A stretch of DNA of 64,000 nucleotides from Chara braunii. Taxonomy: Eukaryota > Plantae > Charophyceae. This document shows positions 17,219-21,254 of this stretch, in pieces. Location of the stretch: the NCBI GenBank assembly GCA_003427395.1, contig BFEA01000009.1, positions 760,879 through 824,878 of the forward strand. Reading direction: 5' to 3'. The translations under genes were made by a program, and so were the position numbers. The notes below the pieces were generated by a model that saw only the letters and a program-made list of their open reading frames with translations, did no database searches and was not told where the DNA came from. Positions within the stretch are counted from its first letter, which is position 1. The number at the start of each line of letters is the position of its first letter.

Positions 17219-17964
17219 TTGGCTGAAGAGAGCTGGACGTCACTCTAGCCCCCTGGCGAAAACGCGGGCTCACAGTGAGCCCTTGATCTGGCCTAGATCC
17301 AGGGCTGACTGTGGCCGCACCACAGCCACAGCCTTAGTGTGGGGCAGTTTCTTTAACTGCCCCATTTTTATTTTTCTTTTCTTTTTTCCAGCTATCTCGG
17401 AATCTGGCGAGATAGCTGGTCTCCTGCCATTTCCAAAACACCTTTTCTTTTCTTTTCCTGATAAGGGGTTGGAGAGATACAGCCCCTTACAGTTTGATGT
17501 ACCCGGACCTTTTTTCCAGGGCAGATATATCGAGGAAAAGGCTGTATCTAGCCTTTTCCTTAGCGTCCCCTCAATTTCCAGGCTCCCTGCAAAAACGGGA
17601 GCCTCATAGTTACCAGCACCACGTGAGGACAAGTGTCCTCACTCAAATTTCTACTGAACTTGGCTTTTACCTCAGCCAGGTTCATGCTGTTGCTTGCAAC
17701 AACCCTCCTCCTTTTCTTCTCTGCCCTCCCCTGAAAACGGGGAGGGTAGTTGTAAGGTTGGGAGAGGTAGGACCTCCCCTTCCTAACTCCCACGTCCCTC
17801 TGCTTTCCGTCACTGTTCCACGCGTGCACTGTGGGCCGCGAGATCTGAGATCTCAGGGCCACAGTCAATTTTCCCAAGAACAAAGTGGGAGCATTTGTGC
17901 TCCCACACAGTCTGAAAGCCTGTTTCTTTGATCCACGAGGCGGTTGCCTCGTTTTTGTTTCACT

Positions 17965-17997
<33 letters not shown>

Positions 17998-18255
17998 GTT
18001 TTTTAGTTTTCTCGTTTTAGCCTCCCCCCGTTTTTGCCTTGTTGGCTGTGGCGTCAACAGCCACGAACGGGAGAAAACAGAAAAAGAGAAATAAACCAAA
18101 AATAAAGAAGAAAACAAAAAAAAAACATACCTGAGTGGTTGCAGTAGCAGCAGTGGCTTGGCCACTGTGTGGGGAATGTATTCTCCCACTTTCTGGTGGG
18201 AGATTCATTCATTTTTGCTTATCCTATGGTTGGCTTCCTCGACGAGGAGCCAACC

Positions 18256-18297
18256 TTAGGTAGGCATGTAGGTAGGTAGGTAGGTCGTAGGTGGCCT

Positions 18298-18352
<55 letters not shown>
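18256..18352. repeat. (TAGG)n and (CT)n microsatellites in LTR A (copy at ~33411-33507)
   Basis: Direct reading. Confidence 0.9.
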
Positions 18353-18356
<4 letters not shown>

Positions 18357-18399
18357 CCTAGACGCCCTTAGCGCCATGTTCAGGCGCAGAAGTAGTTGT

Positions 18400-18458
18400 C
18401 CAGATTGTCGAGGCTCAGCCTCCTGATGAGTCGGTGAGATTCCGACGAAACAGCCTGG
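18400..18458 (+). ncRNA. Type III hammerhead ribozyme
   Basis: ccagattGTC | stem I gaggc-tca-gcctc | CTGATGA | stem II gtcgg-tgagatt-ccgac | GAAAC agcctgg (stem III). All conserved core nucleotides are present; predicted cleavage after C18409. Confidence 0.88.
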
Positions 18459-18815
18459 CACAGAGCTACCCGTTCGTTCAAAACGAACGGGTGCCCAACA
18501 AAACTTAAAAAAAAAGAAAAAGAAGACAAAAAGAAAAAAAACAAAAGAAGAAATCCAAACCAAATCTAAGAAAAAAAAATCTAAGATCAAAAGAAAGAAA
18601 AAAAATCAATAAAAAAAAATATCCTACCTGAGACGAAACGGGGCCCGTTCCGTTGAAAACGGGGGCCCTCTGAAACTGCTGAGGACTACAGTCCTCAGCC
18701 TTTGTTTCCTGGTCGCCATCTGGCGCTGCCATGTTAAGGTCGTTGGCTTATGCCAACGGCAAGGGTCATATTGAAATACAGACCCGAGTTCGATTCCCTA
18801 CGGGGAATCGAAAAG

Positions 18816-18875
18816 AAAATTAGGACCATTTCTCGATTTGTGTGTGTCATCCTTGCACAGGGTCCATGCCGATCT
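18816..18875 (-). ncRNA. U6: 3' half of U6 snRNA (fragment) embedded in LTR A
   Basis: Minus strand agatcggcatggaccctgtgcaaggatgacacacacaaatcgagaaatggtcctaatttt aligns without gaps to the plant U6 3' 60 nt as recalled (AGAUUAGCAUGGCCCCUGCGCAAGGAUGACACGCA.AAAUCGAGAAAUGGUCCAAAUUUU). It lacks the 5' stem and the ACAGAGA box. Confidence 0.9.
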
Positions 18876-18956
18876 GCGCGCGGCCGATCTGGACCGCGCG
18901 ATCTTCAGATCGGGCGGTCGAGGTAGACCGCGCTTCTAAAAAAAACGGGCAGCTCC

Positions 18957-19048
18957 AAAAGGAGCTAGCCCGGCAGAACCACGAGTGAGATTCGATCCCC
19001 ATATCAGCGGGTCGAGAGTTGTGTACCGGTACCTACTGGGCTAGCTCC
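18957..19048 (-). ncRNA. Putative Pol III small RNA with tRNA-like A and B boxes
   Basis: A box TAGCCCAGTAGG (19043-19032) and B box GGATCGAATC (18998-18989) start 45 nt apart, as in tRNA. Terminal stem ggagctagccc/gggctagctcc is immediately followed by TTTT. Confidence 0.5.
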
Positions 19049-21254
19049 TGTTCCATGCTGAACAGGAGCAGCTCTTCAATATGAAGAGCTTGCCCAGATA
19101 CCTTCCCTGCCTGCGGCCTTTCAGGTGCCGGCTGCCTGTGGCCTAGCAGGCCTGCCCCGGTTGTGGCCTGTCGGCTGACCTGCCCGTGGCCTACCCTTAC
19201 CGGTTAGCCGTGTGACCGCTTCTTGGTCGGCCATCGAACCGGGTAAGCCTTGGCATTTGCCTATCGGCCCCCAGGCTCAAAGTCAGACCCCGCGGTTCTA
19301 GAAAAAAAATGAAAGCTTCCTACACCTCCTGCGCCGTGGCCCTATACCCTGGCACAACCCTCTTTTAAGCCCATTTAGGCCCTGAATCGCGCGACTTAAC
19401 AGCCGCGCGACGTTATCATAGGTAGGATAGGTTTAATTTTAACATTTTTTTATCCTCACATTCCTGCGGCTTTCACAAAAGCGTAGCCTTTGTCGTTCAC
19501 ACCCGATACCCCCGGACGTCACATGCGTCCGGACTAAAGTCCGAAAACTCTTAGTTTCTCGGTCATAGGTCAGGTCTGAATAAACGTCTGACAAACGTCA
19601 TTCTCATCAAGTCCTTCAATTCAACGCAAGAGTCGAACAACGTCCGACGTTCAAAAACACCGACAAATACCCTTGTCAGGGTTTTTGCCCCGACAACAAT
19701 CCCAAACCCCATTGAACGACGCCCCCGTCGTTCACCCTATATTAGTTAATAATATAGGGCTTTCTAAATTCTTATGGAACTCTTTTTAACAAAATCTCTT
19801 TCAATCGAAAATAAGCCGGAGCTTATAACTAAAAGTCGAGTTATTGCCTCGGTAATCTAAAATTCAATCATCCATGATTGGAATGTACCAGATATAGCCT
19901 CTGGCAAGCCTTTCACCAAAACCTGAATTTATGCCGGATCAAGATCCAGAATTACTAAAATTATGAAGGAACTTTGTCTAAATGGTCCCAGCATCATCCC
20001 ACTGGCGGCAACTCTAAACATCATTTTAGACTCTCAGAATGGTACCGGAAATAGCCTCCGGCTAGCCTTCTAAACCTCAGTCGGTTAATATTTACATTTA
20101 TCTAAAAAAAAGATCAGGTTTAACCCCCTGACGGGTATTTTAAAATAAATAACCTCCTGAGTGGCCGAGACAGAATCTGGACCAACCATTCATGAGAGAA
20201 ACCATTTTATCAAAAGTCCTTGTCCAAGTTTTGTATCCCATTCCAATTACGAGTTACCATACATGATATTCCTGTATGCATTGTGATATGGGTCGAGGAG
20301 TGGTGTAATCCGCAAAGGATAACATCTCGACGTCAAGCCCTGCTTTAGACTCGAGCCTCACCACTTTCCCGCCGATTCCAGCATCATGTGTTTGCTAGTC
20401 GCTTGCCTGCGAGGTTGAACTACCCTTTCTCTATAACCTAGGCTGGTCAGACCCAGTCATAGAGGCGATGCGACCCCATTCGTCACAAGGCCAAGGTGAC
20501 CACTCTTTTCCCCATGACGAGTGGCAGTTGTCACCCTTACAAGCAAGATTCCGACAATCACAATAATACCATCCTCCCTTTCAATGATAGTGTAGCCACC
20601 TTCCTTAAAAAAAGAAAAAGTGACAGCATCCAACTATGGACCAGGAACAAAGTTCCGGCGTAGGCCTCACTACCACCTATAGAGCTCACTGCATCAGGAC
20701 TCATCATTACATGATAACTAAAAACATTACAAAAGTTCTAGGCTATGATAAATAATTGCTTTACATATTTTGTGAATAACTCATAGTTATGCCACAAGCC
20801 ATATAATGCAAATTGCATATCCTTTTCCTAGAACTTTTTTTTTTTTTACAACGAGAATATATATCAAGTAACAACATACATTTTCACAGAGAGTTCCATA
20901 ACATTCCAGTCCAAAAATATTCATAAATTTGCATTGCATCACATTTCATCGAATAAAGTAACAAGAAATCATTCAAATTTAGGAATCAACAAATTTTCGA
21001 TCAAAATCACAACATAATTTCACGAACAGGAGTCGTATAATTTATTAATTATACAAAAACATGGAACCATAGGTCCCTAAATTAAATCTAAAACGCAAGA
21101 GTCCAAAGTTACAATTTCCTTGTCTGTCCTCAGAACCAGTCAGCAATTTGTGATCCCATGTAAGAAAGAAAGTGGACGAAGAAAAGCAAGTCTCGTTTAT
21201 CCACAATCTATTCTAACTGCAAACCCTTTTATTAAGTCCTTGGAATAAATTTTC

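Follow-up and report, generated by a model that had tools for sequence, protein, structure and literature searches.

The window analysed here, a 64,000-nt stretch of Chara braunii contig BFEA01000009.1, contains a decayed, gag-pol-bearing Ty3/gypsy retrotransposon of about 22 kb on the minus strand. Its 3′ LTR (12871..19695, minus strand) is 6.8 kb long with TG...CA ends in element orientation, and its 5′ LTR occupies 28027..34850 on the same strand. Between them lie gag-pol remnants (21258..27744, minus strand) fragmented by stops, frame changes and one assembly gap, in which reverse transcriptase (RT), RNase H and an integrase zinc finger were matched in gypsy order (Pfam PF00078, PF17917/PF17919 and PF17921). 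Judged from best hits only, the closest RT relatives are Chara braunii proteins (top match, 87% identity), followed by fungal proteins at 33–37%. The LTR interiors (13400–19200) are identical letter for letter, single Ns included, and so represent one collapsed assembly sequence rather than independent copies; 19 differences between the LTRs fall in 19297–19695. No target-site duplication was found, the element flanks being different (GTCGC versus GTGAG), and satellite phase jumps across these flanks, which together indicate that this copy was recombined or mis-joined. The primer-site position (28009..28024, minus strand) lacks a TGG start, and 9 nt there are complementary to 28311–28319 near the inner LTR end, a pairing that might permit self-priming. 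A minus-strand frame within the LTR (15228–14719) had no relatives in protein searches and no Pfam match.

The 3′ LTR houses a dense block of about 20 stems of 7–12 bp (17250..19110) that folds on both strands, and the same block recurs in the 5′ LTR at +15155 (about 32405–34265). The neighbouring element (40211–55173) has no hairpin block, hammerhead or U6 piece. The initial annotation had described about 20 unrelated hairpins, several of them separated by A- or T-runs, at 17270..19420 in the U3-side part of the LTR. We counted 21 perfect Watson–Crick stems of at least 7 bp with loops of 3–12 nt in that interval, which sits 275–2425 nt from the outer end of the LTR in element orientation, and A- or T-rich linkers are present as described; the dense array is real, but its dense part stops near 19110, not 19420. 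All 11 quoted hairpins lie at or within 1 nt of their reported places, among them a c(UACG)g hairpin with a 10-bp stem (18789..18812, plus strand), although those at 17622 and 18678 were given 1 bp too long, which would leave a 2-nt loop. A TATA-like word, ATATAAAA (17209..17218, minus strand), read from the sequence just beyond the inner edge of the block, could be a promoter or a poly(A) signal.

Hairpins at this density were absent from shuffled controls. Against the 21 stems of at least 7 bp in 17270–19420, dinucleotide shuffling (n = 200) gave a mean of 1.46 and a maximum of 5, and local shuffling of 100-nt blocks (n = 200) a mean of 1.56 and a maximum of 9; the 14 stems of at least 8 bp compare with 0.36 in shuffles. 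Stems of at least 8 bp reach 6.5 per kilobase in the block, whereas the rest of the LTR has 0.9, the internal region 0.6 and the neighbouring element 0.3. Windowed folding, which the initial annotation had proposed as a check, gave z ≤ −2 in 25 of 30 (plus strand) and 23 of 30 (minus strand) 120-nt windows starting at 17250–18990, and in only 8 of 73 plus-strand windows from the rest of the LTR. The z-scores are alike on the two strands. A whole-block fold pairs about 65% of bases, and the excess of long-range inverted repeats is only mild (9 versus 3.2, maximum 10 in 100 shuffles). Tandem duplication of the block was rejected, no internal repeat having been found, as were plant miRNA precursors (stems too short, Rfam matches far under cut-off). 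The claim that the hairpins share no sequence did not survive: among 276 hairpin pairs, 7 have a word of at least 8 nt in common, where the null averages 1.5 (maximum 5, n = 200). The word AAAACGGG occurs five times in the block region and nowhere in the other 59.6 kb of the window; when the choice of the word after the fact is allowed for, five copies of any 8-mer arose in none of 300 global shuffles and in 9 of 300 local ones. AACGG occurs 12 times in the block, against 4.3 in shuffles. To call the hairpins wholly unrelated is thus too strong.

In the middle of the block, antisense to gag-pol, lies a predicted type III hammerhead ribozyme (about 18396..18462, plus strand; Rfam RF00008 match at 18402–18456, 49.1 bits against a cut-off of 48.5). 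Its core is intact (CUGAUGA at 18423–18429 and GAAAC at 18447–18451), its cleavage triplet is GUC with the predicted cut after 18409, and its stem III has one G·U and one A·C position. The minimum-energy fold is the hammerhead fold with stem III open (ensemble frequency 0.11, z −1.2), and the centroid fold drops most of the inner stem III. There is one hammerhead per LTR, in both LTRs and 15,155 nt apart, and no terminal repeat surrounds the block. A (CT)26 tract (18302..18353, plus strand) ends about 50 nt upstream. In two DNA runs, depth at the hammerhead bin was 279,496 and 330,272, compared with 989 and 1,333 in the next downstream bin. The copies in this bin show several flank classes, the commonest RNA flank entering (CT)n shortly past the core, and likeness to the abundant hammerhead repeats is confined to the core and a short flank; the core is common to far more abundant repeats and appears to have been captured. 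RNA read ends did not pile up at the predicted cut site in three oligo-dT runs that contain few reads of the window copy. No further ribozyme class was among the 10 Rfam matches at E ≤ 5 in 12900–20500, and two core-like words, a second one at 17248 and a shortened one at 18628, were rejected as hammerheads by eye, their stems being absent.

On the opposite strand, sense to gag-pol, 18815..18877 (minus strand) resembles the 3′ half of U6 snRNA (Rfam RF00026; 41.5 bits, E 6e-8, under the cut-off of 44). The alignment covers about model positions 46–105, without the ACAGAGA box, and terminates at the U6 3′ end. Depth of the window copy's letter at 18822 was 2,282 and 2,844, near the neighbouring family depth, and one contig class omits the piece. 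No tRNA or 5S match was found, and we know of no internal promoter in the 3′ half of U6.

Related copies of the block were compared in two DNA runs from the same species (561 and 599 contigs, most of them less than 95% alike to the window copy), using two comparison tables, one with 40 of 624 variant rows and the other, in which 17295–17390 was masked, with all 34 rows. Three of 31 positions (17490, 17519 and 17531) were excluded because RNA runs alone showed them at 10%. In the two DNA runs, variable positions were rarer in stems (3/92) than in loops (7/41; p = 0.01), and also in a stricter set in which the window copy holds the common letter (3/92 versus 6/41; p = 0.025); against all non-stem sites of the stricter set, stems did not differ (3/92 versus 10/178; p = 0.55). 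Among 15 variant rows at or beside stems, seven gain a Watson–Crick pair, three change to G·U on the plus strand, three break an end pair and two remain unpaired. Variants that keep G·U pairing reach up to 40–80%, and those giving A·C are mostly below 10% (one of three is common). Compensatory changes, another check proposed at the outset, were absent, with zero two-sided substitutions in 270 nt of the block, as judged from per-site tables without linkage between sites rather than from aligned full-length copies. Positions 18795 and 18806, partners in the c(UACG)g hairpin, are each deleted in some related contigs according to the same kind of per-site data.

Whole hairpins are gained or lost among related copies. 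An extra 11-bp hairpin stands between 17614 and 17615 in other copies (five contigs per DNA run and six RNA reads), and contig joints skip 53–190 nt, spanning whole hairpins. Single mismatches in the stems of the window copy are G·U on the plus strand in four cases and on the minus strand in one (p = 0.375), and polymorphic pairs are G·U in five cases versus three. In confident helices, G·U pairs number 17 of 449 on the plus strand and 17 of 362 on the minus strand, a scarcity that suits DNA-level copying. RNA reads at least 95% alike to the window copy, which fell on both strands, made up 9 of 1,609 in X6 and 3 of 26 in X7, the RNA runs compared being oligo-dT libraries (n = 3) with few reads of this copy. 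A search across sequencing runs listed no RNA run among those carrying the sequence.

We propose, with a probability of about 0.5, that the block is a family-wide part of the LTR, that selection on RNA stems likely maintains it and that template switching and small-RNA capture likely built it. The selected RNA or single-stranded DNA structure suggested by the initial annotation is partly upheld: density, confinement and the lower variability of stems than of loops speak for it, and the lack of two-sided substitutions and the comparison of stems with all non-stem sites speak against it. Individual stems would arise, and be brought to perfect pairing, through inverted copying in the course of reverse transcription or replication, and polymerase jumps across their base would remove them. 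Template switching is described as creating and repairing stems, so perfect stems can arise without selection (PMC8794818, available text). A reverse-transcriptase jump onto co-packaged U6 RNA may account for the U6 half, which is sense to gag-pol and stops at the U6 3′ end; retroviral particles are reported to package U6 and, through template switching, to insert patches of host RNA into cDNA (PMC4997597, in the part available). The hammerhead would have come from an abundant (CT)n-associated ribozyme repeat, and Chara Penelope-like families with hammerheads are described as favouring (CT)n (PMC8557442, likewise); it would survive only in antisense, where genomic RNA escapes cutting. The weakest step of this mechanism is what the block does: transcripts of this LTR end would likely be made to self-fold, and plus-strand (antisense) transcripts would be cut by the ribozyme at 18409, before gag-pol is reached, which would keep long double-stranded RNA in check. 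A bolder form holds that a gypsy family with gag-pol keeps a selected, working antisense hammerhead in a 2-kb hairpin domain, that antisense transcripts are cut and folded away to escape silencing, that the element is an autonomous-type counterpart of retrozymes and that type III hammerheads not yet described may number in the thousands in this genome; we regard this as unlikely.

Stems that are almost purely Watson–Crick and fold equally on both strands would also be expected if template switching made and repaired short inverted repeats in a non-coding LTR, so that stems look conserved without function and the hammerhead and U6 pieces are passengers. This neutral account is served by a published mechanism (PMC8794818, available text), and the missing two-sided substitutions, the coming and going of hairpins whole and the p = 0.55 of the stricter set all fit it. 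It does not sit well with the low stem density of the rest of the LTR, itself largely non-coding, and of the neighbouring element compared with the block, with G·U-keeping variants being common where A·C-giving ones mostly are not, or with the intact hammerhead core, and we consider it the likeliest of the alternatives, though still doubtful. The location of the hammerhead mid-block, on the same strand as the c(UACG)g loop, could instead mean that block and hammerhead form a large retrozyme- or viroid-like plus-strand RNA from the LTR, self-processed and either functional or captured whole. The slight G·U lean toward the plus strand and the share of bases paired in the whole-block fold agree with this, retrozyme RNAs being described as highly branched (PMC7761336, as far as its available text goes). 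Such a unit is quite unlikely given a single hammerhead per LTR without a flanking terminal repeat, the mild enrichment of long-range inverted repeats, the restriction of likeness to the core and a short flank, the U6 piece on the opposite strand and, in the oligo-dT runs with their few reads of the window copy, the lack of read ends at the cut site.

A function in DNA would make the block an enhancer, or a region that forms cruciforms, lying upstream of the TATA-like word at 17218–17209, with AAAACGGG as a putative protein-binding site. The U3-side position with that word at the inner edge, the strand symmetry of folding, the five copies of AAAACGGG and the excess of AACGG are in keeping with it. 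However, four hairpins account, with their paired arms, for 8 of the 12 AACGG sites, leaving about eight independent sites; their flanks misfit the plant MSA/MYB consensus; arms of 7–12 bp and differing sequence are atypical for binding sites; and the ribozyme is left unexplained. We judge this reading improbable and retain selection on RNA stems, built by template switching and small-RNA capture, as the preferred one.

Among known systems, the LTR retrozymes of plants (Cervera et al. 2016, PMC4918200, available text) likewise carry a type III hammerhead in the LTRs of a gypsy-related element with highly structured surroundings. They are described there as non-coding, with 300–400-bp LTRs, a 600–1000-nt monomer, a tRNA-Met primer site carried by the cut RNA and 4-bp target duplications. 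The Chara element differs in its 6.8-kb LTR, its RT, RNase H and integrase remnants, a primer site that is not tRNA-Met-like and a ribozyme on the strand opposite gag-pol and the primer site; we rejected retrozyme identity on size, coding remnants, primer site and the absent target duplication. Retrozymes are further marked by abundant circular RNA; the RNA runs compared here were oligo-dT libraries. The TRIMp3 elements Cassandra, Helenus and Ajax (Kojima 2024, PMC10886601) have a small-RNA-derived piece fixed in the LTR, as the Chara element may, but are short and non-autonomous, and their internal Pol III promoters derive from 5S or tRNA, whereas here a U6-like 3′ half sits in a gag-pol-bearing 22-kb element; the available text of that account does not contain the term 'snRNA'. 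Chlamys Penelope-like elements of Chara braunii (Craig et al. 2021, PMC8557442) share the host, a hammerhead near a (CT)n tract and high copy number, but their hammerheads, as listed in the accessible part, belong to type I and have different stems. A look in the available supplement of that paper, in which line breaks could hide a match, did not find six short words taken from the hammerhead region or its relatives' flanks, and the published Chara Penelope-like hammerheads, being type I, gave no match as donor. Host-RNA capture in retroviruses (PMC4997597, available text), with U6 packaging and template-switch patching, fits a sense, 3′-flush U6 piece, but is known there for recombinants and pseudogenes, not for a fixed part of an LTR family.

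A literature search returned no description of the element; outside its reach, and of possible bearing on novelty, lay Repbase, the Chara genome paper, the bioRxiv 2026.07.22.740005 supplements and, from PMC4918200, Additional file 1, which lists algal hammerheads. In the literature found, as far as its accessible text goes, small non-coding retrozymes are the only elements with LTR hammerheads, and LTR small-RNA pieces are confined to miniature elements of 5S or tRNA derivation. The two kinds would be linked by a gypsy LTR that comes with gag-pol and combines a type III hammerhead, a U6-like half and a hairpin domain of 2 kb. Such an LTR would also make two questions testable: the source of LTR ribozymes, and whether RNA structure can serve an element against antisense transcripts. 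Should mutation alone account for the block, it would remain a clear example from nature of hairpins being born and lost through template switching. A scan for the hammerhead pattern returned no locus in viral sequences and one in metagenomes (L001), where a similar hammerhead sits on an unrelated, gene-dense contig.

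The hairpin block is a real feature. All 11 hairpins quoted in the initial annotation are present, and the array is as dense as reported: we counted 21 perfect stems of at least 7 bp, where global shuffles gave 1.46 and local ones 1.56; stems of at least 8 bp numbered 14, compared with 0.36 after shuffling. The density of 8-bp stems was 6.5 per kb in the block region versus 0.2–0.9 per kb in five long stretches elsewhere in the window. When windowed folding was scored against shuffles, 25 of the 30 windows starting at 17250–18990 had z of −2 or lower on the plus strand, as did 23 of 30 on the minus strand; in the rest of the LTR only 8 of 73 plus-strand windows did. 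The array was placed at 17270–19420, on the U3 side of the LTR, and that region does lie 275–2,425 nt from the outer, U3-side LTR end; its start holds (about 17250), but the folding signal fades past about 19110. Nor are the hairpins all unrelated, as had been proposed: 7 of 276 pairs have at least 8 nt in common (null mean 1.5), and the word AAAACGGG occurs five times in the block. A T-rich tract (17953–18125) could pair with an A-rich tract (18257–18295) as a long A–U stem; the T-rich tract finishes with ACAG, resembling a 3′ splice site on the plus strand.

The block lies in the left (3′) copy (12871–19695) of a 6.8-kb direct repeat whose partner spans 28027–34850, both with TG...CA ends. 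These repeats are LTRs because gag–pol pieces sit between them on the minus strand; the pieces match reverse transcriptase (RT), RNase H and an integrase zinc finger, arranged as in gypsy elements. The best 9 RT relatives, and 15 of 36 overall, are named Chara braunii proteins (top identity, 87%), making Chara the most likely host. The LTR pair is identical over 13400–19200, single Ns included, with 19 differing sites (19/399) in 19297–19695; the assembly collapsed the interior into a single sequence and placed it twice, and the block of the second LTR therefore gives no independent support. Comparison of the flanks (12866–12870 and 34851–34855) revealed no target-site duplication, and the element is embedded in a 142-bp satellite that differs in phase between its two sides; it is a recombined or mis-joined copy.

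Two extra parts are found within the block. One is a predicted type III hammerhead ribozyme on the plus strand, antisense to gag–pol (18402–18456; Rfam 49.1 bits, cut-off 48.5). The core is intact, as is the GUC triplet, and the hammerhead is weakly the minimum-energy fold (frequency 0.11, z −1.2). About 50 nt upstream lies the end of a (CT)26 tract, which is preceded by GTAGGT repeats that resemble 5′ splice sites. The suggested Rfam search for further ribozyme classes found none besides the hammerhead. In two DNA runs, the hammerhead bin had a depth of 279,496 and 330,272 versus 989 and 1,333 in the next downstream bin; relative to that bin, the core (18415–18463) is about 250–280-fold deeper in contigs and occurs with several classes of flank. 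Among RNA flanks, the most frequent is like that of this copy for about 25 nt past the core (by eye), then runs into (CT)n, and about 1,400 oligo-dT RNA reads from other families match the core. Transcribed type III hammerheads may number in the thousands in this organism, as part of an undescribed repeat, although summed depth is not copy number. We infer that the hammerhead was captured from such an abundant ribozyme repeat, with donor and direction of transfer putative. Hammerhead-bearing Chara Penelope-like families favour (CT)n, but their ribozymes, the published Chlamys hammerheads, are type I and gave no match to the one here (PMC8557442). Only an antisense hammerhead would be expected to survive, because a sense one would sever the genomic RNA short of its terminus. 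A hammerhead-pattern scan also returned L001, a locus on a metagenome contig that is dense in genes and looks like prokaryote or phage DNA, with a type III hammerhead at 2193–2251 (84% identity over 49 nt to the hammerhead in this block).

The other part is a U6 snRNA-like 3′ half on the minus strand (18877–18815; 41.5 bits, E = 6e-8, below cut-off), which lacks the ACAGAGA box and terminates at the U6 3′ end. The letter of this copy at 18822 has a depth of 2,282 and 2,844, close to the family depth nearby (about 1,500–2,000), so most family members probably have the piece; one contig class skips it. Its orientation, sense to gag–pol, and its flush 3′ end fit an origin in which reverse transcriptase switched onto a U6 RNA packaged alongside, a route described in retroviruses (PMC4997597). 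U6-like sequence across 18815–18877 reaches depths of 150,686 and 192,363, 97% with the alternative letter at position 18822; much of it runs on into U6-like upstream sequence, which suggests very many U6 retrocopies in the genome.

We compared related copies site by site, using contigs and reads under the same species label. Most contigs are 80–95% alike, and the family is therefore diverse. Counting sites with at least 10% variation in the DNA runs (three more, at that level only in RNA, were excluded), 28 positions vary within 17386–17655: 3 of the 92 perfect-stem positions, 7 of the 41 loop positions and 18 of the 137 linker positions. Stems vary less than loops (P = 0.01). As sites private to this copy cannot fall in its perfect stems, we repeated the test on positions at which it has the common or a near-half letter, giving P = 0.025 for stem versus loop and P = 0.55 for stem versus all non-stem. 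Fifteen variant rows fall on or next to stems: 7 create a Watson–Crick pair, 3 change to G·U on the plus strand, 2 stay unpaired and 3 disrupt an end pair, although one of these 3 can pair again in a shifted register (by eye). No two-sided substitution was found among these variants. Positions 18795 and 18806, partners of one pair, are each deleted in some contigs, perhaps not the same ones. In other copies an additional hairpin of 11 bp is present between 17614 and 17615, and a number of contig joints skip entire hairpins; thus the family keeps stems and turns over individual hairpins.

Our preferred reading, at a probability of roughly 0.5, is a block selected for RNA folding, with putative function. 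Stems would be born and repaired through template switching (a mechanism described in PMC8794818), U6 and the hammerhead would have been taken up by capture, and, more speculatively, self-folding and ribozyme cutting of antisense transcripts might limit double-stranded RNA. The shuffle excess and the low stem variation relative to loops argue for the selected structure initially proposed; the comparison with all non-stem positions and the lack of two-sided substitutions do not, and would suit hairpins that are neutral products of template switching, a reading we find rather unlikely. Strand evidence inclines towards plus and settles nothing: single mismatches in this copy's stems give G·U four times on plus versus once on minus (P = 0.375), polymorphic pairs favour plus by 5 to 3, and the hammerhead and c(UACG)g loop lie on plus and the U6 piece on minus. 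G·U pairs are scarce in confident helices (17/449 on plus, 17/362 on minus), and together these data leave room for DNA-level copying. A block acting as a DNA-level enhancer seems improbable and is the least favoured of the alternatives.

That the block is a single antisense retrozyme-like RNA is slightly more doubtful than neutral origin. Retrozyme LTRs are partly alike in workings (PMC4918200), but this element does not belong with them, on account of its size, its coding capacity, its primer site and the strand of the ribozyme. In the oligo-dT runs, X6 gave 1,609 reads, nearly all on two shared cores and 9 at least 95% alike; over 17295–17655, X7 gave 26 (3 at 95% or more, in both directions) and X8 gave 6. 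None of the three had a pile-up of read ends, and they indicate trace transcription of close copies at most. Translation driven by a ribozyme has been reported in RNA viruses (PMC13725137) and is unlikely here because no plus-strand frame of at least 80 aa occurs from the hammerhead to 21217. With Cassandra-type elements (PMC10886601) the block has a small-RNA piece in common, but here that piece resembles U6 and the element carries gag–pol. The literature searched, with Repbase and the Chara genome paper outside it, contained no description of a Chara gypsy LTR that carries a hammerhead or a U6 piece. The block adds to the ribozyme- and small-RNA-bearing LTRs, its function being putative.

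The primer-site position (28009–28024) is not tRNA-like; 9 nt of it are complementary to 28311–28319, a site some 290 nt into the LTR. This arrangement is that of self-priming elements, a mode predicted for Tcn1 and TAR of plants (PMC6317226). The same 9-mer makes a hairpin right before the 3′ LTR (19713–19732), and the purine tract is weak. On the LTR minus strand, two protein-like frames of 179 and 135 aa (15255–14162) lie downstream of a TATA-like word, and sequence searches with the 179-aa frame returned no relative; a 53–56-bp tandem repeat (16350–16920) separates these frames from the block. Arrays of the 142-bp satellite flank the element (6014–12851 and 34852–37117), recur at 55139–56644 and also adjoin a second gypsy-like element on the plus strand (40211–55173; LTRs of about 1 kb). 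A minus-strand frame at 2323–2892 matches Pfam DUF7869 (E = 3e-28).
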